A DNA stretch of 64,000 nt from Escherichia coli (GCF_013122565.1 NZ_CP053258.1); one strand, 5' to 3'. Positions 1-18,505 are shown, numbered from the stretch's first letter. The notes: generated by a model not told the origin, from the sequence alone. Numbers and translations are program-made.

Positions 1-198
<198 letters not shown>

Positions 199-330
199 TT
201 AATTAAAACAACGTTTCATTTCTATCGTTATACGAAAAGATGATCAATTCCGCTAGCCTTAACGCGTGAATTATTGTCTTATCACAACTTATCGGCAGGC
301 GCGTTCCCGCCTTTCGGGTCAAGGCCCGCA

Positions 331-924
331 TCACTCCTTGAGAATAGTTTTTATCGCTTCCCCCGCCAGTGCAGCTGTTGCACAGAGTTGTTCGATGGAG
401 TGCCCCTCCCGTGCCTTCGCAGAAAGCCCTGACATCACGGTACTCATAAAATCAGTCACACATTGTGCGCTTTGTGGATGCCGCCTGGCGATATAGTCAT
501 AAATGGTCGTTTCTGCGGCGTGATAATATTGAAGGGCAATATCACGCGCTTGTGGATCATGACTATGAATACCTTCAAGAACCATACAGCCAGCGCAGCC
601 GCCGTTTTGGCTATATCTGCGCGCCGCTTCTTTTAATACCTCAACCAGGCACTCGCCTACCGGACGATCATCACGAAGAATATCGGCAAGCGGAATAGCT
701 TCCGTACCGACATATTCATTGAGTACACGGCTAAATAACCCAGCCTTACTGCCAAAAGCCGCGTAGAGGCTCGGGGGGTTAATACCAAGATAATCAGTAA
801 CTTCAGCAACACTGACAGCATCGAAACCTTTTTGGTGAAAAAGCACTTTTGCCGCAGAGACTGCCTGCTCAGGAGCGAAACGTCTGGGACGACCTGGAAC
901 GCGAGATTGTTTTTTAGTGACCAT
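331..924 (-). CDS. bdcR: TetR-family transcriptional regulator BdcR
   Basis: 197 aa ORF with N-terminal TetR HTH (GFDAVSVAEVTDYLGINPPSLYAAFGSK); divergent from SDR gene bdcA. Confidence 0.8.
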   Translation of the reverse strand: MVTKKQSRVPGRPRRFAPEQAVSAAKVLFHQKGFDAVSVAEVTDYLGINPPSLYAAFGSKAGLFSRVLNEYVGTEAIPLADILRDDRPVGECLVEVLKEAARRYSQNGGCAGCMVLEGIHSHDPQARDIALQYYHAAETTIYDYIARRHPQSAQCVTDFMSTVMSGLSAKAREGHSIEQLCATAALAGEAIKTILKE

Positions 925-963
925 TACAAAACTTGTTGACAGAAAGTTAAAACAGTTTTGTAA
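924..963. promoter_or_regulatory. Inverted repeat TTACAAAAC...GTTTTGTAA in bdcR/bdcA divergent promoter; candidate TetR-type operator
   Basis: Arms at 924-932 and 955-963 are exact reverse complements, placed between the divergent start codons. Confidence 0.45.
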
Positions 964-994
964 TGCATGTTACATAATAAATCAAGGAGTCCTT

Positions 995-1708
995 ATGGGC
1001 GCTTTTACAGGTAAGACAGTTCTCATCCTCGGTGGCAGTCGTGGTATCGGTGCCGCTATCGTACGTCGTTTCGTCACCGATGGGGCCAATGTACGATTCA
1101 CCTATGCGGGGTCGAAAGATGCCGCTGAACGCCTGGCACAAGAGACTGGAGCGACAGCAGTATTCACAGATAGTGCTGACAGAGACGCTGTCATTGATGT
1201 CGTTCGTAAGAGCGGCGCATTGGATATCCTGGTGGTAAATGCAGGTATTGGCGTCTTTGGCGATGCCCTGGAATTAAATGCCGACGATATTGATCGCCTT
1301 TTCAAAATCAATATTCATGCTCCTTATCATGCCTCTGTTGAAGCCGCCCGGCAGATGCCCGAAGGCGGGCGCATCTTAATCATCGGCTCCGTGAATGGCG
1401 ATCGTATGCCTGTTACAGGCATGGCTGCTTATGCCGCCAGTAAATCTGCCCTGCAAGGCATGGCGCGCGGGCTGGCCCGTGATTTTGGACCGCGTGGGAT
1501 CACCATCAACGTCGTCCAGCCAGGGCCAATTGATACCGACGCTAATCCCGCCAACGGGCCAATGCGCGATATGTTGCATGGTTTTATGGCCATCAAAAGA
1601 CATGGGCAACCGGAAGAGGTCGCTGGTATGGTCGCATGGTTAGCAGGGCCAGAAGCCAGTTTTGTTACCGGCGCGATGCATACCATTGATGGCGCGTTTG
1701 GCGCATAA
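995..1708 (+). CDS. bdcA: Short-chain dehydrogenase/reductase BdcA (c-di-GMP-binding biofilm dispersal mediator)
   Basis: 237 aa from ATG at 995 (AAGGAG RBS at 984-989); Rossmann motif GGSRGIGAAI; ORF-track start at 917 is an upstream in-frame extension. Confidence 0.8.
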   Translation: MGAFTGKTVLILGGSRGIGAAIVRRFVTDGANVRFTYAGSKDAAERLAQETGATAVFTDSADRDAVIDVVRKSGALDILVVNAGIGVFGDALELNADDIDRLFKINIHAPYHASVEAARQMPEGGRILIIGSVNGDRMPVTGMAAYAASKSALQGMARGLARDFGPRGITINVVQPGPIDTDANPANGPMRDMLHGFMAIKRHGQPEEVAGMVAWLAGPEASFVTGAMHTIDGAFGA

Positions 1709-1838
1709 CCGACTACGCTCAATTAAGCCCAGCCATTTCCCATGATGTCTGGGTTTTGTTTACTCACGTCGTCCGCTAAAAGCGGCTCCTGGTAAATATA
1801 AATCTTCTGTTCATGTCGTAAATCTTGAGGATAACCAA

Positions 1839-2234
1839 ATGGTAGAAAGAACCGCTGTTTTCCCTGCTGGCCGACATTCACTGTATGCTGAACATCGTTA
1901 TTCTGCGGCTATTCGTTCCGGCGATTTGCTGTTTGTTTCCGGGCAAGTAGGAAGTCGAGAGGACGGAACACCAGAACCCGATTTTCAGCAACAAGTCAGA
2001 CTGGCATTTGATAATTTGCATGCGACCCTGGCAGCTGCGGGATGCACTTTTGACGATATCATTGATGTTACGAGCTTTCATACCGATCCAGAAAAACAAT
2101 TTGAAGACATCATGACGGTGAAAAATGAAATATTTAGCGCGCCACCTTATCCAACCTGGACGGCGGTGGGCGTTACATGGCTGGCAGGCTTTGATTTTGA
2201 AATTAAAGTGATAGCGCGCATCCCTGAGCTGTAA
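1839..2234 (+). CDS. yjgH: RidA/YjgF-family protein YjgH
   Basis: 131 aa ORF; position between bdcA and pyrL. Confidence 0.75.
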   Translation: MVERTAVFPAGRHSLYAEHRYSAAIRSGDLLFVSGQVGSREDGTPEPDFQQQVRLAFDNLHATLAAAGCTFDDIIDVTSFHTDPEKQFEDIMTVKNEIFSAPPYPTWTAVGVTWLAGFDFEIKVIARIPEL

Positions 2235-2461
2235 GCAATAGTGCTAGCCGTTCGTTTTCACACTCCGCCCTATAAGTCGGATGAATGGAATAAAATGCAT
2301 ATCTGATTGCGTGAAAGTGAAAAAGAAAAAAGCAGGAAATGTCTGCAATTATTGATACCGAACGACAGTTCCCCTCCAGAATCACAGTAAATAAAAATGC
2401 ATATATTTTGACTTTAAATTCAAATAAACCGTTTGCGCTGACAAAATATTGCATCAAATGC

Positions 2462-2489
2462 TTGCACCGCTTCTGACGATGAGTATAAT
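2462..2489 (+). promoter_or_regulatory. Sigma70 promoter of pyrLBI (TTGCAC -35 at 2462-2467, TATAAT -10 at 2484-2489, 16 bp spacer)
   Basis: Consensus -10 and near-consensus -35 read directly, about 25 bp upstream of pyrL. Confidence 0.6.
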
Positions 2490-2514
2490 GCCGGACAATT
2501 TGCCGGGAGGATGT

Positions 2515-2649
2515 ATGGTTCAGTGTGTTCGACATTTTGTCTTACCGCGTCTGAAAAAAGACGCTGGCCTGCCGTTTTTCTTCCCGTTGATCACCCATTC
2601 CCAGCCCCTCAATCGAGGGGCTTTTTTTTGCCCAGGCGTCAGGAGATAA
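2515..2649 (+). CDS. pyrL: pyrBI operon leader peptide
   Basis: 44 aa MVQCVRHFVLPRLKKDAGLPFFFPLITHSQPLNRGAFFCPGVRR, ending 4 nt before pyrB and spanning the attenuator. Confidence 0.85.
   Translation: MVQCVRHFVLPRLKKDAGLPFFFPLITHSQPLNRGAFFCPGVRR
2604..2629 (+). terminator. pyrBI attenuator (rho-independent terminator inside pyrL)
   Basis: GCCCCTC-AATC-GAGGGGC hairpin followed by T8 at 2622-2629. Confidence 0.85.
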
Positions 2650-2652
2650 AAG

Positions 2653-3588
2653 ATGGCTAATCCGCTATATCAGAAACATATCATTTCCATAAACGACCTT
2701 AGTCGCGATGACCTTAATCTGGTGCTGGCGACAGCGGCGAAACTGAAAGCAAACCCGCAACCAGAGCTGTTGAAGCACAAAGTCATTGCCAGCTGTTTCT
2801 TCGAAGCCTCGACCCGTACCCGCCTCTCTTTCGAAACTTCCATGCACCGCCTGGGTGCCAGCGTGGTGGGCTTCTCCGACAGCGCCAATACATCACTGGG
2901 TAAAAAGGGCGAAACGCTGGCCGATACCATTTCGGTTATCAGCACTTACGTCGATGCGATAGTGATGCGTCATCCGCAGGAAGGTGCGGCGCGCCTGGCT
3001 ACCGAGTTTTCCGGCAATGTACCGGTACTGAATGCCGGTGATGGCTCCAACCAACATCCGACGCAAACCTTGCTGGACTTATTCACTATTCAGGAAACCC
3101 AAGGGCGTCTGGACAATCTCCACGTCGCAATGGTTGGTGACCTGAAATATGGCCGCACCGTTCACTCCCTGACTCAGGCGTTAGCGAAGTTCGACGGCAA
3201 CCGTTTTTACTTCATCGCGCCGGACGCGCTGGCAATGCCGCAATACATTCTGGATATGCTTGATGAAAAAGGGATCGCCTGGAGTCTGCACAGCTCTATT
3301 GAAGAAGTGATGGCGGAAGTAGACATCCTGTATATGACCCGCGTGCAAAAAGAGCGCCTGGACCCATCCGAATACGCCAACGTGAAAGCGCAGTTTGTTC
3401 TTCGCGCCAGCGATCTCCACAACGCCAAAGCCAATATGAAAGTGCTGCATCCGCTGCCGCGTGTTGATGAGATTGCGACGGATGTTGATAAAACGCCACA
3501 CGCCTGGTACTTCCAGCAGGCAGGCAACGGGATTTTCGCTCGCCAGGCGTTACTGGCACTGGTTCTGAATCGCGATCTGGTACTGTAA
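2653..3588 (+). CDS. pyrB: Aspartate carbamoyltransferase catalytic subunit
   Basis: 311 aa; ATCase motifs STRTR and HPLP; followed by pyrI. Confidence 0.97.
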
Positions 3589-3600
3589 GGGGAAATAGAG

Positions 3601-4062
3601 ATGACACACGATAATAAATTGCAGGTTGAAGCTATTAAACGCGGCACGGTAATTGACCATATCCCCGCCCAGATCGGTTTTAAGCTGTTGAGTCTGTTCA
3701 AGCTGACCGAAACGGATCAGCGCATCACCATTGGTCTGAACCTGCCTTCTGGCGAGATGGGCCGCAAAGATCTGATCAAAATCGAAAATACCTTTTTGAG
3801 TGAAGATCAGGTAGATCAACTGGCATTGTATGCGCCGCAAGCCACGGTTAACCGTATCGACAACTATGAAGTGGTGGGTAAATCGCGCCCCAGTCTGCCG
3901 GAGCGCATCGACAATGTGCTGGTCTGCCCGAACAGCAACTGTATCAGCCATGCCGAACCGGTTTCTTCCAGCTTTGCCGTGCGAAAACGCGCCAATGATA
4001 TCGCGCTCAAATGCAAATACTGTGAAAAAGAGTTTTCCCATAATGTGGTGCTGGCCAATTAA
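3601..4062 (+). CDS. pyrI: Aspartate carbamoyltransferase regulatory subunit
   Basis: 153 aa; C-terminal zinc-binding cysteines (CPNSNC...CKYCEK). Confidence 0.97.
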
Positions 4063-4134
4063 TTGCGGTTGGTAATAAAAGTCTGGCTCCCTATAATGAG
4101 CCAGACTTTTTACCGCTGTAATAAAGGAGAAATC

Positions 4135-4521
4135 ATGAGCAAAACTATCGCGACGGAAAATGCACCGGCAGCTATCGGTCCTTACGTACAGGGCGTTGAT
4201 CTGGGCAATATGATCATCACCTCCGGTCAGATCCCGGTAAATCCGAAAACGGGCGAAGTACCGGCAGACGTCGCTGCACAGGCACGTCAGTCGCTGGATA
4301 ACGTAAAAGCGATCGTCGAAGCCGCTGGCCTGAAAGTGGGCGACATCGTTAAAACTACCGTGTTTGTAAAAGATCTGAACGACTTCGCAACCGTAAACGC
4401 CACTTACGAAGCCTTCTTCACCGAACACAACGCCACCTTCCCGGCACGTTCTTGCGTTGAAGTAGCCCGTCTGCCGAAAGACGTGAAGATTGAGATCGAA
4501 GCGATCGCTGTTCGTCGCTAA
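4135..4521 (+). CDS. ridA: Enamine/imine deaminase RidA (YjgF)
   Basis: 128 aa from ATG at 4135 (MSKTIATENAPAAIGPYVQG...); ORF-track start at 4063 is an upstream extension. Confidence 0.93.
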   Translation: MSKTIATENAPAAIGPYVQGVDLGNMIITSGQIPVNPKTGEVPADVAAQARQSLDNVKAIVEAAGLKVGDIVKTTVFVKDLNDFATVNATYEAFFTEHNATFPARSCVEVARLPKDVKIEIEAIAVRR

Positions 4522-4578
4522 TCTTGATGGAAATCCGGGCTATCATGCCCGGATTAAGTCTGATGATAAACGCAAAAT

Positions 4579-4670
4579 CGCCTGATGCGCTACGCTTATC
4601 AGGCCTACGTGATTCCTGCAATTTATTGAATTTGTTGGCCGGATAAGGCATTTACGCCGCATCCGGCATG
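4579..4670. repeat. REP elements (two palindromic units) between ridA and mgtA
   Basis: GCCTGATGCGCTACGCTTATCAGGCCTAC and GCCGGATAAGGCATTTACGCCGCATCCGGC. Confidence 0.8.
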
Positions 4671-4726
4671 AACAAAGCTTACTTTGTCTGCAATCTGAAT
4701 CGGGGCTATCGTGCCCAGTTTATTCT

Positions 4727-7423
4727 TTATTGCCAGCCGTAACGTCGGCTATAGAACCCTTTCACCAACTGGGTTAATGTCATATACCCTGCCAGAATCG
4801 CAACCAGCCACGGGAAATAGCTTAACGGCAGCGCCTGCAGCTGCAGATAACTGGCCAGCGGTGAAAACGGCAATGCGATCCCGACAATCATCACGATCAC
4901 GGTCATGATCATTAACGGCCACGATGCACAGCTCTGAATAAACGGCACACGACGGGTGCGGATCATATGCACAATCAGCGTTTGTGACAGCAAGCCCACC
5001 ACAAACCATCCCGACTGGAACAGCGTTTGCGTTTCCGGCGTGTTGGCATGGAATACCCACCACATCAGGCAAAACGTCAGAATATCGAAGATCGAGCTGA
5101 TCGGTCCGAAGAAGATCATAAAGCGCCCCAGATCCGCCGGATTCCAACGCTGCGGCTTTTGAATTTGCTCGTCGTCGACGTTATCAAACGGGATCGCCAC
5201 CTGTGACACATCGTACAGCAGGTTCTGAATAAGCAAGTGTAACGGCAACATCGGCAGGAAGGGCAAGAAAGCACTCGCCACCAGCACGCTGAACACATTA
5301 CCGAAGTTAGAGCTCGCCGTCATTTTGATGTATTTCAGCATGTTGGCGAAAGTGCGACGTCCCTCAATAACCCCCTCTTCCAGCACCATCAGGCTTTTTT
5401 CCAGCAGGATGATATCAGCCGCTTCACGGGCAATATCTACCGCGCCGTCCACAGAAATGCCGATATCCGCAGCGCGTAAGGCGGGCGCATCATTAATACC
5501 ATCGCCCATAAAGCCAACCACATGCCCTTCGCGCTTCAGTAAGGTCACAATGCGTTCTTTATGCATCGGCGTCAGGCGGGCAAACAGCGTGGTGCGCTGT
5601 GCGAGATTTGCCAGTTCGTCGTCAGATAGCGTTTCAATATCACTACCAATGACCACCTCTCCCGCGTCCAGCCCCACTTCATGGCACACTTTCGCTGCAA
5701 CTAACTCACTGTCGCCAGTAAGGATTTTTACGGTAATTCCACTCGCTTTTAATGCCTTCAGTGCCGGAGCGGTTGTCTCTTTTGGCGGATCAAGGAAAGC
5801 AATATATCCTTCGAGGATCAGGTCGGATTCATCCGCCCGCTGGTAATCTCCTTCACGCGCTGGCAGGTATTTCGTCGCCACCGCAACCACGCGCAACCCC
5901 TGACGATTCAGCGTATCAGTAACCCGCTTAATCTTACGCAGCATGGTGTCATCGAGCGGTACTATCTCGCCATTGTGACGCACCTGCGAACACACATTGA
6001 GGATTTCCTGCAATGCACCTTTGCAAACCAGCTGATGGTGCTCGGTATTTTCTGCCACTACCACCGACATCCGGCGACGCTCGAAATCAAACGGAATCTC
6101 ATCAATTTTTTGCCAACGGCTGGCCAGCGAGCGCGCTGACTCTTCATCCGTACCTTCGAGCACCGCTGTATCGAGCAGGTTTTTAAGTCCGGTCTGATAA
6201 TGACTGTTCAACCACGCGCTATGCAGCACGCGTTCGCTGGTTTTACCGGAGATATCGGTATGATTCTCCAGCACAATTTTGTCCTGTGTCAGGGTGCCGG
6301 TTTTATCAGTGCACAGAATATCCATTGCGCCAAAGTTCTGAATAGCATCCAGATGTTTGACGATCACTTTCTGTTTCGACAGCTTTACTGCGCCGCGCGC
6401 CAACGTCGAGGTAACAATCATCGGCAACATTTCCGGCGTTAGGCCTACCGCGACCGAAAGCGCAAACAGCGCCGCTTCCCACCAGTCGCCTTTGGTGTAG
6501 CCATTGATTAACAGCACCACCGGTGCCATCACCAGCATAAAGCGAATCAGCAGCATACTGACGCGGCTGATCCCTTGCTGAAAGGCATTCGGCTCGCTTT
6601 CCTGCTCACTAACACGCCCCGCCAGTTGACCAAACCAGGTATTGGCACCTGTAGCAATCACCATTGCTTGTGCCGTGCCGCTCACCACGGTGGTGCCCAT
6701 AAAACACAGCGTGTCGCACTCCAGCGGATTGCTGTGCTCCGGCTGGCGAGTGGTAGCGGCTTTTTCCACGGGCAGAGACTCACCGGTTAACGACGCCTGA
6801 GCGACGAACAGATCCCGCGCCTGCAAGATACGTAAATCTGCCGGGATCATATCCCCCGCCGCCAGTTTTATAATATCGCCGGGCACCAGCTGGTCGATCG
6901 GGATCTCCAGCCAGCCATTTTCGCCTTTGTCGTTAATTACGCGCAGCACCGTCGCAGTATTGCTGACCATCGCTTTCAGGGCATCTGCCGCTTTAGTGGA
7001 ACGTGCTTCCTGAATAAAGTTCAGCAACGTTGAAATAGCGACCATTAGCGCGATAACGCCCGCGGCAAATAAATCTTCCGTGGCGTAAGAAATAGCGCCG
7101 AGAATGGTGAGTAAAATATTAAATGGGTTGCGATAGCAGACCCATAAATGTACCCACCACGGCGACGGTTGTTGTGCGGGTAATTTATTTTCACCATGTT
7201 GTTCGCGGGCAGATTCCACTTCCGCCTGATTTAACCCTTCCGGATGGGTGTCGAACGTTTTCCACAATTCTTCTTCGGGCATCACCGCCATTTTCAGGCA
7301 ATGCGCACTTAAGGACGGCGGGACCACCGTATTCACTGTCTGCTGCGCGCCAGGCAATGGATCACGATGAACCAGACGGGAAGGTAAATGGCGAATGAGC
7401 CGGGTAAAAATTTCTTTAAACAT
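4727..7423 (-). CDS. mgtA: Mg2+-importing P-type ATPase
   Basis: 898 aa; P-type ATPase motifs DKTGTLT and GDGINDAPAL; AAGGAG RBS upstream of ATG at 7423. Confidence 0.97.
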   Translation of the reverse strand: MFKEIFTRLIRHLPSRLVHRDPLPGAQQTVNTVVPPSLSAHCLKMAVMPEEELWKTFDTHPEGLNQAEVESAREQHGENKLPAQQPSPWWVHLWVCYRNPFNILLTILGAISYATEDLFAAGVIALMVAISTLLNFIQEARSTKAADALKAMVSNTATVLRVINDKGENGWLEIPIDQLVPGDIIKLAAGDMIPADLRILQARDLFVAQASLTGESLPVEKAATTRQPEHSNPLECDTLCFMGTTVVSGTAQAMVIATGANTWFGQLAGRVSEQESEPNAFQQGISRVSMLLIRFMLVMAPVVLLINGYTKGDWWEAALFALSVAVGLTPEMLPMIVTSTLARGAVKLSKQKVIVKHLDAIQNFGAMDILCTDKTGTLTQDKIVLENHTDISGKTSERVLHSAWLNSHYQTGLKNLLDTAVLEGTDEESARSLASRWQKIDEIPFDFERRRMSVVVAENTEHHQLVCKGALQEILNVCSQVRHNGEIVPLDDTMLRKIKRVTDTLNRQGLRVVAVATKYLPAREGDYQRADESDLILEGYIAFLDPPKETTAPALKALKASGITVKILTGDSELVAAKVCHEVGLDAGEVVIGSDIETLSDDELANLAQRTTLFARLTPMHKERIVTLLKREGHVVGFMGDGINDAPALRAADIGISVDGAVDIAREAADIILLEKSLMVLEEGVIEGRRTFANMLKYIKMTASSNFGNVFSVLVASAFLPFLPMLPLHLLIQNLLYDVSQVAIPFDNVDDEQIQKPQRWNPADLGRFMIFFGPISSIFDILTFCLMWWVFHANTPETQTLFQSGWFVVGLLSQTLIVHMIRTRRVPFIQSCASWPLMIMTVIVMIVGIALPFSPLASYLQLQALPLSYFPWLVAILAGYMTLTQLVKGFYSRRYGWQ

Positions 7424-7563
7424 AAGGAGTCCCTCCGCACTGTCTGAAACAGTACAGAAATGTCTTCAGGCGTGGCGAAGCCTTACCTGAAGGTAATAAA
7501 GCTGAGCAGGGACGTTAAAACGTCACGGCCTTACGCATCCGGTAACGCCGTGAAAAGACGGGC
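7424..7563 (-). promoter_or_regulatory. mgtA 5' leader (Mg2+-responsive leader RNA region between mgtL and mgtA)
   Basis: 140 nt untranslated segment between mgtL stop and mgtA start; role from established knowledge of the mgtA leader. Confidence 0.6.
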
Positions 7564-7617
7564 TTACCGGAAAAGTTTTAATCTCCGTCGAGGGAGAGGC
7601 GTGGGATCAGGTTCCAT
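7564..7617 (-). CDS. mgtL: mgtA leader peptide (proline-rich)
   Basis: Reverse complement of 7564-7617 translates as [17 protein letters not shown]. Confidence 0.85.
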
Positions 7618-7710
7618 ATAACCTCCGGTAAGTGAAAAAAGCGCCGCAAATAATAAGGAGAATCCAATAATATTCGTAGCATCTATGGCGATATAATACC
7701 TGCTGGCAAC

Positions 7711-7727
7711 TAAACCAACGATAAACC
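7711..7727 (-). promoter_or_regulatory. PhoP box (direct repeat GGTTTA-N5-GGTTTA) in mgtLA promoter
   Basis: Reverse strand reads GGTTTATCGTTGGTTTA, about 95 bp upstream of mgtL. Confidence 0.6.
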
Positions 7728-7801
7728 AGACTTTACCCATTGCTGAATGCACGGGTAAAGTTAGGCTCAAATAATTAAACAACACGTTACAGGACAACAG
7801 G

Positions 7802-8749
7802 ATGCAAAATCGGCTGACCATCAAAGACATCGCGCGCTTAAGCGGCGTGGGGAAATCTACAGTTTCCCGGGTGCTGAATAACGAAAGCGGCGTGAGCCAG
7901 CGCACCCGCGAGCGTGTTGAAGCAGTGATGAATCAGCATGGATTTTCCCCTTCCCGCTCTGCGCGCGCTATGCGTGGGCAAAGCGATAAAGTGGTCGCCA
8001 TCATTGTTACCCGTCTGGATTCGTTGTCAGAAAATCTCGCCGTTCAAACCATGCTGCCAGCGTTTTATGAACAAGGTTACGACCCAATCATGATGGAAAG
8101 TCAGTTTTCCCCGCAATTAGTTGCCGAACATTTGGGGGTGCTGAAACGGCGTAATATCGACGGCGTAGTGCTGTTCGGTTTTACCGGCATAACAGAAGAA
8201 ATGTTAGCCCACTGGCAGTCATCGCTGGTTCTGCTGGCGCGTGACGCAAAAGGCTTTGCTTCGGTCTGTTATGACGACGAAGGGGCAATCAAGATCCTGA
8301 TGCAACGGCTGTATGACCAGGGGCATCGTAATATCAGTTATCTCGGCGTGCCGCACAGTGACGTGACAACCGGTAAGCGACGTCACGAAGCCTACCTGGC
8401 GTTCTGCAAAGCGCATAAACTGCATCCCGTTGCCGCCCTGCCAGGGCTTGCTATGAAGCAAGGCTATGAGAACGTAGCAAAAGTGATTACGCCTGAAACT
8501 ACCGCCTTACTGTGCGCAACCGACACGCTAGCACTTGGTGCAAGTAAATACCTGCAAGAGCAACGCATCGACACCTTGCAACTGGCGAGCGTCGGTAATA
8601 CGCCGTTAATGAAATTCCTCCATCCGGAGATCGTCACCGTAGATCCCGGTTACGCCGAAGCTGGCCGCCAGGCGGCCTGCCAGTTGATCGCACAGGTAAC
8701 CGGACGCAGCGAACCGCAACAAATCATCATCCCCGCCACCCTGTCCTGA
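7802..8749 (+). CDS. treR: Trehalose operon repressor (LacI family)
   Basis: 315 aa; N-terminal LacI-type HTH (TIKDIARLSGVGKSTVSRVLNNE). Confidence 0.93.
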   Translation: MQNRLTIKDIARLSGVGKSTVSRVLNNESGVSQRTRERVEAVMNQHGFSPSRSARAMRGQSDKVVAIIVTRLDSLSENLAVQTMLPAFYEQGYDPIMMESQFSPQLVAEHLGVLKRRNIDGVVLFGFTGITEEMLAHWQSSLVLLARDAKGFASVCYDDEGAIKILMQRLYDQGHRNISYLGVPHSDVTTGKRRHEAYLAFCKAHKLHPVAALPGLAMKQGYENVAKVITPETTALLCATDTLALGASKYLQEQRIDTLQLASVGNTPLMKFLHPEIVTVDPGYAEAGRQAACQLIAQVTGRSEPQQIIIPATLS

Positions 8750-8867
8750 TCGTTTCCTGAACGATAAATTGTGATCTTCGCTGCGCTTCGGGAACGTTCC
8801 CGTTTTTAAATTTTTCCGCGCAATATATTCTGCAGCCAACCAAAAATGTCATCTGCCATGGGGCTTT

Positions 8868-10289
8868 ATGATGAGCAAAATAAACCAAACGGATATCGAT
8901 CGGTTGATTGAACTGGTCGGCGGGCGCGGCAATATTGCGACGGTGAGCCACTGTATTACTCGCCTGCGCTTTGTCCTCAACCAACCGGCCAATGCCAGAC
9001 CGAAAGAAATTGAGCAACTCCCCATGGTGAAAGGCTGTTTCACCAATGCCGGGCAATTTCAGGTGGTGATTGGCACCAACGTGGGTGATTACTATCAAGC
9101 ACTGATAGCGTCAACCGGACAGGCGCAGGTTGATAAAGAGCAGGTAAAAAAAGCCGCCCGGCAGAATATGAAATGGCATGAGCAGTTGATCTCTCATTTC
9201 GCGGAGATCTTCTTCCCGTTGCTGCCCGCGTTGATCAGCGGCGGTTTGATCCTCGGTTTTCGCAATGTGATCGGCGATTTGCCCATGAGCAACGGTCAAA
9301 CGCTGGCGCAAATGTACCCTTCCCTGCAAACGATCTACGATTTTCTGTGGTTGATCGGTGAAGCGATCTTCTTCTACCTGCCGGTCGGTATTTGCTGGTC
9401 AGCGGTGAAAAAAATGGGCGGCACGCCGATCCTTGGTATCGTGCTTGGCGTGACACTGGTTTCTCCCCAGCTGATGAACGCTTATCTGCTCGGGCAGCAG
9501 CTGCCGGAAGTGTGGGACTTTGGCATGTTCAGCATCGCCAAAGTGGGCTATCAGGCACAGGTGATCCCGGCACTGTTAGCCGGGCTAGCACTGGGCGTTA
9601 TTGAAACTCGCCTTAAACGCATCGTGCCAGATTACCTCTATCTGGTGGTGGTGCCCGTCTGTTCGCTGATCCTCGCGGTGTTCCTCGCCCATGCGCTGAT
9701 TGGTCCATTTGGTCGCATGATTGGTGATGGCGTTGCCTTTGCGGTACGTCACCTGATGACCGGTAGCTTTGCTCCGATTGGTGCGGCATTGTTTGGCTTC
9801 CTGTACGCGCCGCTGGTGATCACCGGCGTACACCAGACCACCCTTGCTATTGATTTGCAGATGATTCAAAGCATGGGTGGCACGCCAGTGTGGCCGCTGA
9901 TTGCGCTGTCGAATATCGCTCAGGGCTCCGCCGTGATAGGCATTATCATTTCCAGCCGCAAGCACAATGAACGCGAGATCTCCGTGCCTGCCGCTATCTC
10001 CGCCTGGCTTGGGGTCACTGAGCCTGCAATGTACGGCATCAACCTGAAATATCGCTTCCCGATGCTGTGCGCGATGATTGGTTCTGGTCTGGCAGGATTG
10101 CTATGCGGCCTGAACGGCGTTATGGCGAATGGTATCGGCGTAGGGGGCCTGCCGGGAATTCTCTCGATTCAACCGAGCTACTGGCAGGTATTTGCGCTGG
10201 CAATGGCTATCGCCATCATCATCCCGATTGTACTCACCTCGTTTATCTACCAGCGGAAATACCGCCTGGGCACGCTGGACATTGTTTAA
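8868..10289 (+). CDS. treB: PTS trehalose-specific EIIBC component
   Basis: 473 aa; EIIB motif VSHCITRLRF, then polytopic membrane domain. Confidence 0.93.
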   Translation: MMSKINQTDIDRLIELVGGRGNIATVSHCITRLRFVLNQPANARPKEIEQLPMVKGCFTNAGQFQVVIGTNVGDYYQALIASTGQAQVDKEQVKKAARQNMKWHEQLISHFAEIFFPLLPALISGGLILGFRNVIGDLPMSNGQTLAQMYPSLQTIYDFLWLIGEAIFFYLPVGICWSAVKKMGGTPILGIVLGVTLVSPQLMNAYLLGQQLPEVWDFGMFSIAKVGYQAQVIPALLAGLALGVIETRLKRIVPDYLYLVVVPVCSLILAVFLAHALIGPFGRMIGDGVAFAVRHLMTGSFAPIGAALFGFLYAPLVITGVHQTTLAIDLQMIQSMGGTPVWPLIALSNIAQGSAVIGIIISSRKHNEREISVPAAISAWLGVTEPAMYGINLKYRFPMLCAMIGSGLAGLLCGLNGVMANGIGVGGLPGILSIQPSYWQVFALAMAIAIIIPIVLTSFIYQRKYRLGTLDIV

Positions 10290-10338
10290 TTTTCTTCGGG
10301 GCGCAATTGCGCCCCCTCGCATTTGCAGGAATAACGTA

Positions 10339-11994
10339 ATGACTAATCTTCCCCACTGGTGGCAAAACGGCGTTATCTACCAGATTTATCCAAAGAGTTT
10401 TCAGGACACCACGGGTAGCGGCACCGGCGATTTACGTGGCGTTATCCAACGCCTGGACTATCTGCATAAACTGGGCGTTGATGCCATCTGGCTAACCCCC
10501 TTTTATGTCTCTCCCCAGGTCGATAACGGTTACGACGTAGCGAACTATACGGCGATTGATCCCACCTACGGCACGCTGGACGATTTTGACGAACTGGTGA
10601 CGCAGGCAAAATCGCGCGGAATTCGTATCATTCTCGATATGGTGTTTAACCATACCTCTACCCAACATGCCTGGTTTCGCGAGGCGCTGAACAAAGAAAG
10701 CCCTTACCGCCAGTTTTATATCTGGCGCGATGGCGAACCAGAAACGCCACCGAACAACTGGCGTTCAAAATTTGGCGGTAGTGCGTGGCGCTGGCATGCG
10801 GAAAGCGAACAGTACTATTTGCATCTCTTTGCACCAGAACAGGCGGATCTCAACTGGGAGAATCCAGCGGTACGCGCAGAGCTGAAAAAAGTCTGTGAGT
10901 TCTGGGCCGATCGTGGGGTCGACGGGTTGCGCCTGGATGTGGTGAATCTGATCTCCAAAGACCCGCGTTTCCCTGAAGACCTGGACGGCGACGGGCGTCG
11001 CTTCTACACCGACGGGCCACGAGCACACGAGTTTTTGCACGAGATGAACCGCGATGTGTTTACGCCACGCGGGTTAATGACCGTAGGTGAAATGTCCTCC
11101 ACCAGCCTTGAGCATTGCCAGCGATACGCGGCTCTGACAGGCAGTGAATTGTCGATGACCTTTAATTTTCATCACCTGAAGGTCGATTATCCCGGTGGTG
11201 AAAAATGGACGCTGGCTAAACCTGACTTTGTGGCGTTGAAAACATTGTTCCGCCACTGGCAACAAGGAATGCACAACGTGGCATGGAATGCCTTGTTCTG
11301 GTGTAACCACGATCAGCCGCGCATTGTTTCTCGCTTTGGTGATGAAGGTGAATACCGCGTGCCTGCGGCAAAAATGCTGGCGATGGTGCTGCATGGCATG
11401 CAGGGAACGCCGTATATCTACCAGGGCGAAGAGATTGGCATGACCAACCCGCATTTCACGCGCATTACTGACTATCGCGACGTAGAGAGCCTCAATATGT
11501 TTGCCGAGCTGCGCAACGATGGTCGTGATGCCGACGAGTTATTGGCAATCCTCGCCAGTAAATCCCGTGACAACAGTCGCACGCCCATGCAATGGAGCAA
11601 CGGCGATAATGCCGGGTTTACGGCTGGCGAACCATGGATTAGCATGGGCGATAACTATCAACAAATCAACGTAGAAGCCGCGCTGGCCGATGAGTCCTCG
11701 GTGTTTTACACCTACCAAAAGTTAATCGCACTACGTAAGCAAGAAGCCGTTCTGACATGGGGCAATTACCAGGATCTGCTGCCAAACAGCCCTGTATTGT
11801 GGTGCTATCGCCGTGAATGGAAGGGGCAAACCTTGCTGGTCATTGCCAACCTTAGCCGTGAGATCCAACCCTGGCAGCCAGAGCAAATGCGCGGCAACTG
11901 GCAGCTTGTGATGCATAACTACGAAGAAGCCTCACCACAACCCTGTGCCATGACTTTACGGCCTTTTGAGGCTGTCTGGTGGTTACAGAAGTAA
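10339..11994 (+). CDS. treC: Trehalose-6-phosphate hydrolase (GH13)
   Basis: 551 aa from ATG at 10339 (MTNLPHWWQNGVIYQIYPKSF); ORF-track start at 10192 overlaps treB and is an extension. Confidence 0.93.
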   Translation: MTNLPHWWQNGVIYQIYPKSFQDTTGSGTGDLRGVIQRLDYLHKLGVDAIWLTPFYVSPQVDNGYDVANYTAIDPTYGTLDDFDELVTQAKSRGIRIILDMVFNHTSTQHAWFREALNKESPYRQFYIWRDGEPETPPNNWRSKFGGSAWRWHAESEQYYLHLFAPEQADLNWENPAVRAELKKVCEFWADRGVDGLRLDVVNLISKDPRFPEDLDGDGRRFYTDGPRAHEFLHEMNRDVFTPRGLMTVGEMSSTSLEHCQRYAALTGSELSMTFNFHHLKVDYPGGEKWTLAKPDFVALKTLFRHWQQGMHNVAWNALFWCNHDQPRIVSRFGDEGEYRVPAAKMLAMVLHGMQGTPYIYQGEEIGMTNPHFTRITDYRDVESLNMFAELRNDGRDADELLAILASKSRDNSRTPMQWSNGDNAGFTAGEPWISMGDNYQQINVEAALADESSVFYTYQKLIALRKQEAVLTWGNYQDLLPNSPVLWCYRREWKGQTLLVIANLSREIQPWQPEQMRGNWQLVMHNYEEASPQPCAMTLRPFEAVWWLQK

Positions 11995-12138
11995 ATCTTC
12001 ACTAAGCCCCGGTAATGCCTGTCATTCCGGGGTTTTGTCTGTCAGCATGTTGTTTTTGTTGATTTTTCAACCAGCAAATTCATTAAAAAATTTACATATC
12101 GCTGTAGCGCCCGTCATCCGTACGCTCTGCTTTTTACT

Positions 12139-12152
12139 TTGAGCTACATCAA
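12139..12152 (+). promoter_or_regulatory. Candidate FNR site (TTGAGCTACATCAA) upstream of nrdD
   Basis: One mismatch to TTGAT-N4-ATCAA; nrdDG is FNR-activated in E. coli. Confidence 0.5.
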
Positions 12153-12178
12153 AAAAAGTTCAAACATCCTTGATGCAA

Positions 12179-12230
12179 AGCACTATATATAGACTTTAAA
12201 ATGCGTCCCAACCCAATATGTTGTATTAAT
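12179..12230 (+). promoter_or_regulatory. Candidate tandem NrdR boxes upstream of nrdD
   Basis: CACTATATATAG and CCCAATATGTTGTATT with centres about 32 bp apart, overlapping the putative promoter. Confidence 0.45.
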
Positions 12231-12387
12231 CGACTATAATTGCTACTACAGCTCCCCACGAAAAAGGTGCGGCGTTGTGGATAAGCGGATGGCGATTGCG
12301 GAAAGCACCGGAAAACGAAACGAAAAAACCGGAAAACGCCTTTCACAATTTCTGTGGATAACCTGTTCTTAAAAATATGGAGCGATC

Positions 12388-14526
12388 ATGACACCGCATG
12401 TGATGAAACGAGACGGCTGCAAAGTGCCGTTTAAATCAGAGCGCATCAAAGAAGCAATTCTGCGTGCAGCTAAAGCAGCGGAAGTCGATGATGCCGATTA
12501 TTGCGCCACTGTTGCCGCGGTTGTCAGCGAGCAGATGCATGGCCGCAACCAGGTGGATATCAACGAGATCCAGACCGCAGTTGAAAACCAGCTGATGTCG
12601 GGTCCATACAAACAACTGGCTCGTGCTTACATCGAGTACCGTCACGATCGCGACATTGAACGTGAAAAACGCGGTCGCCTGAACCAGGAGATCCGTGGTC
12701 TGGTCGAGCAGACCAACGCCTCGTTACTCAACGAAAACGCCAACAAAGACAGCAAGGTGATTCCAACCCAGCGCGACCTGCTGGCCGGGATCGTGGCTAA
12801 ACACTATGCACGTCAGCACCTGCTGCCGCGTGACGTGGTGCAGGCACATGAGCGTGGCGATATTCACTATCACGATCTCGATTACTCGCCGTTCTTCCCG
12901 ATGTTCAACTGCATGTTGATCGACCTGAAAGGCATGCTGACCCAGGGCTTTAAAATGGGGAACGCCGAGATTGAACCGCCGAAGTCGATCTCTACGGCAA
13001 CCGCGGTAACTGCGCAGATTATTGCTCAGGTTGCCAGCCATATTTATGGCGGCACCACCATTAACCGTATCGATGAAGTGCTGGCACCGTTTGTCACCGC
13101 CAGCTACAACAAACATCGCAAGACCGCAGAAGAGTGGAACATCCCGGACGCCGAAGGCTACGCTAACTCTCGTACCATTAAAGAGTGCTACGATGCCTTC
13201 CAGTCGCTGGAGTACGAAGTAAACACTCTGCACACCGCCAACGGTCAGACGCCGTTTGTAACCTTTGGTTTTGGTCTGGGCACCAGCTGGGAGTCGCGCC
13301 TGATTCAGGAATCTATCCTGCGTAACCGTATCGCAGGCCTCGGTAAAAACCGTAAAACTGCGGTGTTTCCGAAACTGGTGTTTGCGATTCGCGATGGCCT
13401 GAACCATAAAAAAGGCGATCCGAACTACGACATCAAACAGCTGGCGCTGGAGTGCGCAAGCAAGCGCATGTATCCGGATATCCTGAACTACGATCAGGTA
13501 GTGAAAGTCACCGGTTCGTTTAAAACTCCGATGGGCTGCCGCAGCTTCCTCGGCGTGTGGGAAAATGAAAACGGCGAGCAGATCCACGATGGTCGTAACA
13601 ACCTCGGCGTGATCAGCCTGAACCTGCCGCGTATTGCTCTGGAAGCAAAAGGCGATGAAGCCACCTTCTGGAAGCTGCTGGATGAACGTCTGGTGCTGGC
13701 ACGTAAGGCGCTGATGACCCGTATCGCTCGTCTCGAAGGCGTGAAAGCGCGCGTGGCCCCGATCCTCTATATGGAAGGTGCTTGTGGCGTGCGTCTGAAT
13801 GCTGACGATGATGTTTCTGAAATCTTCAAAAACGGTCGTGCGTCTATTTCGCTGGGTTACATCGGCATCCACGAAACCATTAACGCGCTGTTCGGCGGCG
13901 AGCATGTTTACGACAACGAGCAGCTTCGCGCGAAAGGTATCGCCATTGTTGAACGTCTGCGTCAGGCAGTGGATCAGTGGAAAGAAGAAACGGGTTATGG
14001 TTTCAGTCTCTACAGCACGCCGAGTGAAAACCTGTGCGACCGCTTCTGCCGTCTCGATACTGCTGAGTTTGGCGTGGTGCCGGGCGTGACCGATAAAGGT
14101 TACTACACCAACAGTTTCCACCTCGATGTGGAGAAGAAGGTGAACCCGTACGACAAGATCGACTTTGAAGCGCCTTACCCGCCGCTGGCGAACGGTGGTT
14201 TCATTTGCTACGGCGAGTATCCAAACATTCAGCACAACCTGAAGGCGCTGGAAGATGTCTGGGATTACAGCTATCAGCATGTACCGTATTACGGCACCAA
14301 TACGCCGATCGATGAGTGCTACGAGTGTGGCTTTACCGGTGAGTTCGAGTGCACCAGCAAAGGCTTCACTTGCCCGAAATGTGGTAACCATGACGCCTCC
14401 CGTGTGTCGGTAACTCGCCGCGTGTGCGGATATTTAGGTAGCCCGGATGCACGTCCGTTTAACGCTGGTAAGCAGGAAGAAGTTAAGCGCCGCGTTAAAC
14501 ATTTGGGGAATGGGCAGATAGGTTAA
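12388..14526 (+). CDS. nrdD: Anaerobic ribonucleoside-triphosphate reductase (class III)
   Basis: 712 aa; N-terminal ATP-cone, C-terminal glycyl-radical region and CxxC zinc ribbon (CTSKGFTCPKCG). Confidence 0.97.
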   Translation: MTPHVMKRDGCKVPFKSERIKEAILRAAKAAEVDDADYCATVAAVVSEQMHGRNQVDINEIQTAVENQLMSGPYKQLARAYIEYRHDRDIEREKRGRLNQEIRGLVEQTNASLLNENANKDSKVIPTQRDLLAGIVAKHYARQHLLPRDVVQAHERGDIHYHDLDYSPFFPMFNCMLIDLKGMLTQGFKMGNAEIEPPKSISTATAVTAQIIAQVASHIYGGTTINRIDEVLAPFVTASYNKHRKTAEEWNIPDAEGYANSRTIKECYDAFQSLEYEVNTLHTANGQTPFVTFGFGLGTSWESRLIQESILRNRIAGLGKNRKTAVFPKLVFAIRDGLNHKKGDPNYDIKQLALECASKRMYPDILNYDQVVKVTGSFKTPMGCRSFLGVWENENGEQIHDGRNNLGVISLNLPRIALEAKGDEATFWKLLDERLVLARKALMTRIARLEGVKARVAPILYMEGACGVRLNADDDVSEIFKNGRASISLGYIGIHETINALFGGEHVYDNEQLRAKGIAIVERLRQAVDQWKEETGYGFSLYSTPSENLCDRFCRLDTAEFGVVPGVTDKGYYTNSFHLDVEKKVNPYDKIDFEAPYPPLANGGFICYGEYPNIQHNLKALEDVWDYSYQHVPYYGTNTPIDECYECGFTGEFECTSKGFTCPKCGNHDASRVSVTRRVCGYLGSPDARPFNAGKQEEVKRRVKHLGNGQIG

Positions 14527-14547
14527 TCTTCACTCTGCGCTAAGCAA

Positions 14548-14680
<133 letters not shown>

Positions 14681-14683
14681 ATA

Positions 14684-15148
14684 ATGAATTATCATCAGTA
14701 CTATCCTGTCGACATCGTCAACGGCCCCGGCACTCGCTGCACCCTGTTTGTCTCCGGGTGTGTTCATGAATGCCCCGGTTGCTATAACAAAAGCACATGG
14801 CGGGTAAATTCTGGTCAGCCATTTACCAAAGCAATGGAAGACCAGATCATTAACGATCTGAATGACACTCGTATCAAACGCCAGGGTATTTCCCTCTCCG
14901 GCGGCGATCCGCTGCATCCGCAAAACGTGCCGGATATTCTGAAACTGGTACAACGCATCCGCGCCGAGTGTCCGGGTAAAGACATCTGGGTGTGGACAGG
15001 CTATAAACTCGACGAACTCAACGCTGCGCAAATGCAGGTTGTTGATTTGATTAACGTGCTGGTCGACGGCAAATTTGTGCAGGATTTAAAAGACCCTTCC
15101 CTGATCTGGCGCGGCAGCAGCAATCAGGTGGTGCATCATTTGCGTTAA
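14684..15148 (+). CDS. nrdG: Anaerobic ribonucleotide reductase activating enzyme (radical SAM)
   Basis: 154 aa; radical-SAM cysteine motif CxxxCxxC (CVHECPGC). Confidence 0.95.
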   Translation: MNYHQYYPVDIVNGPGTRCTLFVSGCVHECPGCYNKSTWRVNSGQPFTKAMEDQIINDLNDTRIKRQGISLSGGDPLHPQNVPDILKLVQRIRAECPGKDIWVWTGYKLDELNAAQMQVVDLINVLVDGKFVQDLKDPSLIWRGSSNQVVHHLR

Positions 15149-15439
15149 TCACTCATCCAGTCGTTTAGTCGCGTCTTCATAAACGGCTGAGTTCTCTCTC
15201 TTACCAATAGATATCACCAACACGAGCAACTCTTTATCGTTAACCTGATAAACCAGGCGATATCCCAGTGTGCGCAGCTTAATTTTGTAGCAGTCCGGTA
15301 AATCCCGCAGTTTAGCCGATGGATTGCGCGGCCTTTTTAGCAAATCCTCAAGCTTTTTTTTAAATTGTTCCCGGACTGTCACGCCCAGTTTTTGCCACTC
15401 TTTCAGCGCCCGCGGATCAAAAGCCAGCTCATAGTTCAT
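15149..15439 (-). CDS. RelE/ParE-superfamily type II toxin (RelE-like)
   Basis: 96 aa from ATG at 15439 (MNYELAFDPRALKEWQKLG...YKIKLR..GYRLVYQV...LVLVISIGKRE), resembling RelE; overlaps upstream antitoxin gene by 11 nt; ORF-track start at 15517 is a non-ATG extension. Confidence 0.8.
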   Translation of the reverse strand: MNYELAFDPRALKEWQKLGVTVREQFKKKLEDLLKRPRNPSAKLRDLPDCYKIKLRTLGYRLVYQVNDKELLVLVISIGKRENSAVYEDATKRLDE

Positions 15440-15671
15440 CCAGTCGGACCTTAATGGCCTCTTGTGGGTTGGCCAGTCGTTCCCTGACAGTGCGTAACAA
15501 GGCTTCTTCACTATCACTGACAGTGAGCGTTTTTACCGGCATTCGTCCATTTTCCGCAACGTACTGAAACAGCAGCCGCACTGCTTCAGTAGGCGTGATA
15601 TTTAATTTTTCCAGCACCGCATAAGCCTCATTTTTCAGTTTGTCATCCAGGCGGACGTTAAGTGTGGCCAT
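15429..15671 (-). CDS. RelB/DinJ-family antitoxin
   Basis: 80 aa MATLNVRLDDKLKNEAYAVLEKLNITPTEAVRLL..., resembling RelB; GGAGG RBS upstream; immediately 5' of and overlapping the toxin gene. Confidence 0.8.
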   Translation of the reverse strand: MATLNVRLDDKLKNEAYAVLEKLNITPTEAVRLLFQYVAENGRMPVKTLTVSDSEEALLRTVRERLANPQEAIKVRLDEL

Positions 15672-15695
15672 TATGCCTCCGGTAATTATGAAAAG

Positions 15696-15730
15696 TGTAA
15701 TGCATTATAGCATTACATATGCATTACATT
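15696..15730 (-). promoter_or_regulatory. Putative autoregulatory operator of the RelBE-like module
   Basis: Perfect palindrome TAATGCATTA (15698-15707) plus repeats of GCATTACA at 15710 and 15721, 25-60 bp upstream of antitoxin ATG. Confidence 0.5.
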
Positions 15731-15819
15731 CATTTCTGGAAAACGCCTCGCAAAAATGGCGTCGACACGCAGAAATATGCCGTAGTGAAGAGAGATTTGG
15801 CGGTGATTTTACGAGGGGT

Positions 15820-15854
15820 AAGAAAGCGTTGGGCGGTAACGTTTCACCGCCCAA
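15820..15854 (-). terminator. Putative cybC terminator
   Basis: TTGGGCGG...CCGCCCAA stem (15829-15854) just downstream of cybC stop, T-rich tail on reverse strand. Confidence 0.4.
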
Positions 15855-15861
15855 TAAGGAA

Positions 15862-16251
<390 letters not shown>

Positions 16252-16430
16252 TCACTTCCTTTTTTATTTACACTTCATCCTTCACACTGCCTCATCGACG
16301 GCTACGCTCATTCGACCGGGTCACGTACTACGAGTACGCTCCCCGGCTCTCATTCACTTTCCGTCTCGATGCAGCGCGAATGATTTTGTGTAATTTTTTA
16401 GTTTATGGCGCGGCAGGTCGCGCCAGTTTT

Positions 16431-17783: not shown

Positions 17784-17876
17784 AATGTAGAGAGTTTCTC
17801 TGAAGTCTAACAGAGAACCGTTTTTCAGTGCGCATCTTAACTGGTAACATTAGCCTCTTTTTTTAAGGAGCCTGAG

Positions 17877-18428
17877 ATGACTAAGCAGCCCGAAGACTGG
17901 CTCGACGACGTTCCCGGTGATGACATCGAAGACGAAGACGATGAAATTATCTGGGTCAGTAAAAGTGAAATTAAACGCGATGCCGAGGAGCTAAAACGCC
18001 TTGGCGCGGAAATTGTTGATCTGGGGAAAAACGCGCTGGATAAGATCCCGTTAGATGCGGATCTGCGCGCGGCTATTGAGCTCGCCCAGCGTATTAAGAT
18101 GGAAGGTCGCCGCCGCCAGTTGCAGCTCATCGGTAAGATGCTGCGCCAGCGCGATGTTGAACCGATCCGTCAGGCGCTGGATAAGCTGAAAAACCGTCAC
18201 AACCAGCAGGTGGTACTGTTCCATAAACTGGAAAACCTGCGCGATCGTCTGATCGATCAAGGTGATGACGCCATCGCTGAAGTATTGAATCTGTGGCCCG
18301 ATGCCGATCGTCAGCAACTGCGTACTCTGATCCGCAACGCGAAGAAAGAGAAAGAAGGGAATAAGCCGCCGAAATCCGCACGCCAGATTTTCCAGTATCT
18401 GCGCGAGTTAGCGGAGAACGAAGGGTAA
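17877..18428 (+). CDS. yjgA: Ribosome-associated protein YjgA (DarP), DUF615
   Basis: 183 aa acidic/basic protein; conserved position between pmbA and mpl. Confidence 0.85.
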
Positions 18429-18454
18429 TTTTCGTTGTTGATGTGAGTATGGTT

Positions 18455-18505
18455 TGCCGGATGCGGCGTAAACGCCTTATCCGGCAATGCTTTATCAGGC
18501 TGAAG
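18455..18505. repeat. REP element
   Basis: GCCGGATGCGGCGTAAACGCCTTATCCGGC unit. Confidence 0.8.

Follow-up and report, generated by a model that had tools for sequence, protein, structure and literature searches.

Positions 7424..7740 of the minus strand are confirmed as the control region of E. coli mgtA, comprising a PhoP-activated promoter, the small leader gene mgtL and a structured leader RNA. The region is already known biology and is present in its canonical K-12 form in the window, i.e. the whole 64,000-nucleotide stretch of E. coli DNA analysed here. Two-layer magnesium control by the E. coli mgtA promoter and leader is the best explanation of its features, to which we assign a probability of roughly 0.95. 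All sequence elements required by the published model are present and intact, and nothing argues against the identification. Read along the minus strand, these elements follow one another as the PhoP box (7727..7711), a 12-nt spacer, the hexamer TATTAT (7698..7693), ~70 nt of leader, GGAGG (7626..7622), the mgtL ATG (7617), a 17-codon open reading frame (ORF) closed by TAA (7566..7564), a further ~140 nt of leader, GGAGG (7436..7432) and the mgtA ATG (7423). A previous sequence-only reading of this DNA had labelled the region as well-described biology, and rightly so: it is annotated in RefSeq, curated in Rfam and experimentally studied, its transcribed leader is identical to that of K-12, and biologically there is nothing new in it. 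The sequence elements, the identity with K-12, the folding of stem-loops A, B and C, the conservation, the covariation and the coding signature come from the present analysis; PhoP binding, mgtL translation, Mg2+ dependence and termination are taken from the literature.

Identity of the region and its conservation in E. coli

Comparison with K-12 MG1655 revealed only two differences in 411 aligned nucleotides, both upstream of the predicted transcription start. From that start to the mgtA ATG the identity is complete, and the transcribed leader is thus the one used in the E. coli experiments. Many complete E. coli chromosomes match the 451 bases at 7830..7380 with 100% identity, with treR, mgtL and mgtA annotated there by RefSeq, and at least 80% of this 451-bp region is carried by 5423 out of 5426 complete E. 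coli genomes. In two RefSeq records, the mgtL coding sequence maps exactly to window positions 7617..7564 and the mgtA start to 7423. In E. coli GCU-H1 (NZ_CP178558.1, 648632..648780), only the treR-proximal 149 of the 451 query bases match, which suggests that the mgtA promoter and leader have been deleted or interrupted in this strain.

The first part of the window (1..25000) displays at most 98.3% identity to any of the 5426 complete E. coli genomes, with mismatches distributed evenly (95.7–99.3% identity per kb), so that its lineage would seem to have no close relative in the complete-genome set. Set against this figure for 25 kb, the 451 bp found at 100% in many strains indicate that the mgtA control region is more conserved than its flanks.

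Downstream of the region, mgtA (4727..7423, minus strand) encodes an 898-aa Mg2+-importing P-type ATPase, annotated by RefSeq at identical coordinates and matching the TIGR01524 equivalog with 1609.7 bits against a cut-off of 610.75. Its start at 7423 directly adjoins position 7424, at which the sequence-only reading had begun the control region. The divergent upstream gene is TreR (TIGR02405).

The PhoP-activated promoter

The PhoP box, previously claimed as GGTTTA-N5-GGTTTA, was recovered as GGTTTATCGTTGGTTTA at 7727..7711 of the minus strand. It is a direct repeat of two GGTTTA half-sites (7727..7722 and 7716..7711) separated by TCGTT, and it takes the place of the -35 element. The exact pattern KGTTTA-N5-KGTTTA has a single match in the 64-kb window, where 0.01 are expected from shuffles. 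With two mismatches allowed, the 8 matches in the window are not distinguishable from the 4.2 expected by chance, and the weight is therefore carried by the exact match together with its position. The predicted -10 hexamer, TATTAT (7698..7693), read from the sequence, lies 12 nt downstream of the box. Promoter geometry, the only basis here, would place the transcription start at about 7686 (+/-3) and give a leader of ~263–264 nt. A generic sigma-70 -35/-10 scan of 7380..7830 found no promoter, as expected for an activator-dependent promoter lacking a -35 element, and hence this is not counter-evidence.

The arrangement matches the promoter class described by Zwir et al. (2012, PMC3335776) as architecture I, in which a single direct (T/G)GTTTA-N5-(T/G)GTTTA box lies 12 nt from the -10 and serves as a site of class II activation. 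In Salmonella mgtA, which has the 12-nt spacing and a 264-nt leader, binding and activation by PhoP are backed by gel-shift assays and in vitro transcription, and a PhoP-independent mgtA start site exists as well (PMC3335776). In E. coli, mgtA is likewise under PhoQ/PhoP control (PMC11552253). The direct repeat on the mgtA strand, the 12-nt spacing and the overlap with the -35 position were all found in the window, supporting assignment of this putative promoter to the PhoP-activated architecture I.

The same layout is widespread among related loci, collected as described below for mgtL. A PhoP box with at most two mismatches is found ~100 nt upstream of stem A in 69 out of the 75 sequences that reach far enough upstream (74 enterobacterial loci and the window), and every one of the 69 sequences with a recognisable box has a TATNAT-type hexamer exactly 12 nt past it. 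The hexamer is TATCAT in 28 of these, TATTAT in 19, TATGAT in 9, TATAAT in 8 and another variant in the remaining 5. In Kosakonia, Phytobacter and relatives (L016, L040, L056, L057 and L072), the distance from the -10 to stem A is only ~30 nt, compared to ~60 nt elsewhere.

A conserved block upstream of the PhoP box

Directly next to the PhoP box, on its upstream side, lies a conserved block of 14 nt, AATGGGTAAAGTCT (7728..7741, minus strand), which may not belong to the system. Its consensus, ATG[AG]G[CT]AAA[AG]TCT, is found in 60 of the 75 enterobacterial loci scanned and is almost as conserved as the PhoP box itself. The block could represent an extra PhoP contact, the -35 region of treR or a site for another regulator. 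GGGTAA (7738..7733), located one helical turn upstream and considered as a third PhoP half-site, agrees at 4 of 6 positions, and the GGGCAA of most genera at 3 of 6. A weak treR -35/-10 pair can be discerned by eye on the plus strand (TTTACC 7732..7737 and TAAAGT 7756..7761, 8 of 12 matches, below the scan threshold), and it overlaps the block. Adjacency to treR does not explain the block, and co-occurrence of the two carries no information: of the 68 sequences considered, 67 have treR as their divergent neighbour, whether the block is present or absent. Rob-driven transcription of mgtA has reportedly been described (Barchiesi, 2008). A Mar/Sox/Rob box in the block found no support: the window contains 132 matches to such a box where 140 are expected, and near the promoter there are only matches with three mismatches. 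An ORF does not account for the block either, as the frame from its ATG is not conserved.

The leader gene mgtL

The 17-codon leader ORF claimed in the sequence-only reading starts with ATG at 7617 and ends with TAA at 7564 (7564..7617, minus strand), and its translation is identical to K-12 mgtL (b4702, YP_003933616.1); RefSeq WP_001387276.1 is annotated at the same position. Disruption of the ORF, which that reading had named as the observation that would overturn it, was looked for, and the frame is intact. That a length cutoff hides such a gene was borne out: in our mechanical ORF list, mgtL is seen only within a 113-aa frame (7905..7564), of which it forms the C-terminal end. Current RefSeq annotation does call it. 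The peptide begins MEPDPTPLP and thus contains the acidic/proline motif M-[DE]-P-[DE]-P-[TA]-P, including EPDP. The Shine-Dalgarno sequence GGAGG (7622..7626, minus strand) lies in the 5' arm of stem A, 4 nt ahead of the ATG, and the stop codon falls within the 3' arm of the same stem.

Homologous loci were collected with one DNA-pattern scan of a species-representative genome collection. The pattern fixed the strongly conserved bases of the 5' half of stem A. No constraint was placed on the middle base of the ATG, on third positions of codons, on the sequence from codon 8 on or on the stop codon. Of the 77 loci returned, 76 were kept, representing ~20 enterobacterial genera, including Escherichia, Salmonella, Citrobacter, Klebsiella, Raoultella, Enterobacter, Kluyvera, Leclercia and Lelliottia as well as Kosakonia, Phytobacter, Pluralibacter, Trabulsiella, Yokenella, Atlantibacter and others. 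The excluded locus (L038, Rokuibacteriota) matches by chance, within a long frame that is unrelated. One kept locus (L048, CACSKA010000007.1, 6546..6665) is labelled Chryseobacterium sp. 18061, yet its PhoP box, mgtL and mgtA leader are typical of enterobacteria; it shares its MgtL peptide, without any difference, with Citrobacter sp. 18056 (L078), and the two isolate names, 18061 and 18056, are alike. This contig with its Bacteroidota label is probably a contamination or part of a mislabelled assembly.

An ATG followed by a 16–17-codon ORF ending in Arg is present in all 76 enterobacterial loci. Counting the window, 61 sequences have 51 nt from the ATG to the TAA and the other 16 have 48 nt, and the distance is never out of frame. 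The TAA is embedded in an invariant CCGGTAA of the stem A 3' arm, and the placement of the Shine-Dalgarno sequence in the 5' arm and the stop in the 3' arm, as found in the window, is the same in all 76 loci. Codons 2–7 vary mainly at third positions, whereas the C-terminal half of the peptide is free to vary. Invariance in alignment columns 5–37 is not independent evidence, because these columns are partly fixed by the search pattern; the same applies to G7, G8, A9 and G10, which are invariant in 74 leaders at positions that the pattern partly fixes. The third-position variation in the motif codons shows a constraint at the amino-acid level, although conservation of the motif is partly forced by the pattern. 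Overall, mgtL appears to bear the signature of an ORF that needs to be translated and is constrained in its N-terminal sequence and its length. Translation of mgtL in MG1655 has been demonstrated by toeprinting and mgtL:yfp fusions (PMC11282234). The comparison across genera provides a compact example of the marks that set a small regulatory ORF apart from one arising by chance, namely, frame-preserving indels, variation mainly at third positions and a stop codon placed in a conserved helix.

Stem-loops A, B and C of the leader RNA

An Rfam scan of the whole window, which the sequence-only reading had proposed as a check alongside comparison with annotated mgtL, bore out the claimed leader RNA: RF01056 (Magnesium-II) matches 7632..7517 of the minus strand over the full model (positions 1–115 of 115) with 125.8 bits (gathering score 40; E = 5.5e-25). 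When 7300..7900 was rescanned permissively, with E up to 1, no family besides RF01056 appeared. Membership in this family is supported by the full-model score, the three-way junction followed by stem-loop B, the alternative stem-loop C and mgtA downstream.

According to the Rfam consensus structure, stem-loop A (7563..7632, minus strand) is a three-way junction enclosing mgtL, with an outer helix formed by 7632..7622 and 7573..7563 and inner hairpins at 7616..7602 and 7597..7582. Folded by itself it reaches -21.2 kcal/mol; its outer helix is 97.3% paired in 74 leaders and mostly invariant, with one compensatory closing pair. Stem-loop B (7525..7551, minus strand), the partner of A in the repressing fold at high Mg2+, has a folding energy of -17.0 kcal/mol (z = -3.25) and is 98.5% paired in the 74 leaders, with compensatory changes in 6 of 10 pairs. 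The alternative stem-loop C (7539..7570, minus strand), known from the literature as the read-through, low-Mg2+ fold, joins the 3' arm of A to the 5' arm of B, which excludes both A and B. Stem C folds with -15.9 kcal/mol (z = -4.19), is 89.4% paired in the 74 leaders and has three pairs changed on both sides, its covariation support being weaker than that of stem B. Folded singly, A, B and C each beat nearly all shuffles. Furthermore, when the Rfam consensus is laid over the 74 distinct leader cores, 96.1% of cells are paired, compared to 36–49% with partners slid by 1–3 columns. At leader-core position 87, Escherichia leaders have G instead of the C or U of other genera; in the window this G (7546) forms a G-G mismatch with 7530 in stem B and with 7563 in stem C, slightly weakening both.

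The distal leader

The distal third of the leader (7424..7516, minus strand) lies outside the Rfam model. It had been left out of the sequence-only reading, as had the strand, and it contains two conserved hairpins (7492..7464 and 7457..7435) together with a closing helix covering the mgtA ribosome-binding site. In this helix (7429..7513, minus strand), GUCCCU (7513..7508) pairs with AGGGAC (7434..7429), so that the mgtA Shine-Dalgarno sequence GGAGG (7436..7432) is covered. The distal leader folds with -37.6 kcal/mol (z = -5.34). In 48 leaders, the paired cells amount to 94.2%, and compensatory changes affect 4 of 7 pairs of the first hairpin and 6 of 9 pairs of the second, values that are somewhat flattering in that the structure was derived from the same alignment that scored it. 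The closing helix is 95.8% paired with zero double changes, i.e. it is conserved in sequence, and its anti-Shine-Dalgarno strand GUCCC (7513..7509) is nearly invariant across genera while the neighbouring bases vary. The literature mentions "additional stem-loop structures" beyond the junction; in the accessible papers, we found no discussion of the pairing between GUCCC(U) and the mgtA Shine-Dalgarno sequence as a translational gate.

An MgtA-like N-terminus is encoded downstream of the element in all 73 sequences that extend far enough downstream. Leader length varies among loci: stem A and the mgtA start are 247–324 nt apart in several (L057, L060, L070 and L072) and ~205–225 nt in most.

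Model of magnesium control

In the model that we favour, the first layer acts on initiation: low external Mg2+ would be sensed by PhoQ, and phosphorylated PhoP would then bind the repeat at 7727..7711, which replaces the -35, and bring RNA polymerase to the -10 at 7698..7693. Transcription would begin near 7686. The second layer acts on elongation into mgtA: a ribosome would load on the mgtL Shine-Dalgarno sequence while the leader is being transcribed. With adequate cytoplasmic Mg2+, the ribosome would pass the destabilising EPDP and the proline codons and reach the stop codon in the 3' arm of stem A; mgtL being fully translated, stem-loops A and B would form and transcription would halt before mgtA. 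At low Mg2+, or under proline limitation, or without EF-P or EttA, the ribosome would stall or drop off early in mgtL, the 3' arm of A and the 5' arm of B would pair as stem C, and polymerase would read through into mgtA.

The choice between A+B and C follows the published model, in which efficient mgtL translation represses and inefficient elongation through acidic and proline codons at low Mg2+ leads to C and read-through (PMC11552253). In MG1655, EPDP was shown to destabilise the ribosome, an effect counteracted by EttA, with a toeprint at Pro3 in the P site; substitution of E2 and D4 by Q and N abolishes expression of an mgtA reporter, and Northern blots show that changes in the mgtA transcript depend on mgtL translation (PMC11282234). 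The Mg2+ sensor may be the RNA directly, the translating ribosome or both (PMC11552253). Rho-dependent termination has been demonstrated in Salmonella mgtA, whereas the same source states that no evidence of it was detected for E. coli mgtA (PMC11552253), and a 2025 review of Rho notes that termination by Rho at mgtA "may not be conserved in E. coli". Yet 3'-end mapping places an end in the mgtA 5' UTR among the known E. coli Rho events (PMC7815308). Given the doubts voiced in PMC11552253 and in the 2025 review, and with the literature in conflict, the Rho termination step is uncertain in E. coli. A scan of 7380..7830 for intrinsic terminators found none in the leader, which is expected with factor-dependent termination; this is consistent with a Rho-dependent attenuator and is not counter-evidence.

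Alternative explanations

Could the leader act purely as an RNA riboswitch, in which Mg2+ binds the leader RNA and stabilises A and B while mgtL translation is incidental to Mg2+ sensing? Rfam titles the element "Magnesium riboswitch aptamer", the leader structures are strongly conserved, and in vitro Mg2+-dependent folding alone suffices to modulate Rho termination in Salmonella mgtA (PMC11552253). We nevertheless consider this unlikely, given that the coding signature of mgtL goes beyond what RNA structure demands (only 3-nt indels, third-position variation, ATG in 76 of 76 loci) and that in E. coli experiments mgtL translation and EPDP control mgtA expression (PMC11282234); moreover, the riboswitch and mgtL-translation models are not mutually exclusive. 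Far less probable is that mgtL is merely the C-terminus of a 58-aa protein starting at an in-frame ATG at 7740 (MGKVWFIVGLVASRYY...) and expressed from a promoter upstream of the PhoP promoter. The frame from this ATG crosses the PhoP box and the -10 in E. coli and runs in phase into mgtL (41 aa plus MgtL). It is open from 7740 to 7564 in the window, in K-12 and in a few other loci, its first codons coincide with the conserved block, and a PhoP-independent mgtA start is known from Salmonella (PMC3335776). Against such a protein, the frame ends after 11–100 codons across genera and occurs in all three phases relative to mgtL (24, 24 and 13 loci), its apparent conservation coincides with promoter elements, it is annotated neither in K-12 nor in other RefSeq genomes, and the PhoP-dependent transcript starts downstream of ATG 7740. 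The ORF at 7564..7740 (minus strand), variable in frame across genera and unannotated, is thus probably not a gene. The idea that the small ORF and the box are chance features can be practically dismissed: their small size speaks for it, but 0.01 boxes are expected in the window, the Rfam E-value is 5.5e-25, and conservation, covariation and frame preservation extend across ~20 genera.

A further alternative concerns the off state, which in E. coli might be established without Rho, either by the distal GUCCCU/AGGGAC helix blocking the mgtA ribosome-binding site or by transcript decay (e.g. through RNase E), with control then exerted on translation or RNA stability instead of termination. The doubts about Rho termination of E. 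coli mgtA raised in PMC11552253 and the 2025 review are in keeping with this possibility, as are the very stable distal fold that pairs the mgtA Shine-Dalgarno sequence, the near invariance of the opposing GUCCC across genera amid variable neighbours and a paper on RNase E and the mgtA transcript in the reference list of PMC11552253. However, the closing helix shows no compensatory changes, and its conservation could therefore reflect the Shine-Dalgarno sequence itself together with a C-rich Rho-loading or pause site (GUCCC). Furthermore, the E. coli mgtA transcript level shifts with mgtL translation on Northern blots (PMC11282234), and a premature 3' end lies in the E. coli mgtA 5' UTR (PMC7815308). 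On balance, an off state without Rho seems rather improbable to us. With similar reserve, we entertain the doubtful suggestion that two conserved features act outside the standard model, the GUCCC/GGGAC helix as a separate translational gate on mgtA and the block at 7741..7728 as a target of some other regulator or an additional contact for PhoP. Such a gate, if true, would help to explain why Rho dependence has been elusive in E. coli. The favoured reading remains two-layer control by the PhoP-activated promoter and the translated leader.

Significance and other features of the window

For the genome scan, this region serves as a correct positive control: the sequence-only reading recovered the 17-codon gene, the promoter box and the leader RNA, each of which was independently verified. 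Two conserved pieces, the helix pairing with the mgtA Shine-Dalgarno region and the block next to the PhoP box, may merit experimental study in E. coli, whose termination step at mgtA is debated. Elsewhere in the window, Rfam matches above the gathering score include ES239 sRNA (38960..39082, minus strand, 157.4 bits), the RpsF leader (61488..61572, minus strand, 110.1 bits), STnc450 (34331..34388, plus strand, 77.2 bits) and naRNA4 (24644..24722, minus strand, 70.2 bits); ES036 (34209..34251, plus strand) scores 37.7 bits, just over the threshold of 37.6. An annotated E. coli record (L080) has the same coordinates as the window in this part, and by collinearity with it a further leader-peptide gene, pyrL, should lie upstream of pyrB at about 2515..2649 of the plus strand.

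Comparison with known systems

The closest counterpart is the K-12 mgtA promoter with mgtL (b4702) and its leader (RF01056). Leader and mgtL agree base for base, and the box, the -10, the spacings and the order treR <> mgtL-mgtA are shared. At the two differing positions, the window has C for the T of K-12 within the 12-nt spacer between box and -10, and T for the G of K-12 at ~30 nt ahead of the PhoP box. The mgtA leader and mgtL of Salmonella enterica, in which the mechanism was worked out, share this architecture: one direct PhoP box separated from the -10 by 12 nt, ~264 nt of leader, a proline-rich ORF of 17 codons in stem A, the alternative A+B and C folds and distal hairpins. Salmonella differs from the window by several small leader indels, and in S. 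enterica subsp. arizonae MgtL reads MDPEPTPLPRWRVFLFR, unlike the peptide of the window. Escherichia differs from Salmonella in having a G-G mismatch at a position common to stems B and C, and Rho-dependent termination, demonstrated in Salmonella, is questioned in E. coli.

The corA leader with corL, found in E. coli and Salmonella, also precedes a magnesium-transporter gene and has a 5' three-way junction enclosing a small ORF, mutually exclusive RNA folds and expression inverse to translation of the small ORF (PMC11552253). By contrast, its promoter is constitutive and not PhoP-dependent, and corL contains a single proline (PMC11552253); it belongs to another locus and another Rfam family and is absent from the mgtA control region. 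More distantly, in the trpL, hisL and pyrL attenuators and in tnaC, translation of a short upstream ORF likewise selects between RNA folds or governs access to a terminator. The classical attenuators, however, sense charged tRNA and use an intrinsic terminator, of which none was found in the mgtA leader, whereas the signal read through mgtL is the Mg2+- and proline-dependent progress of the ribosome through acidic and proline codons (PMC11282234).
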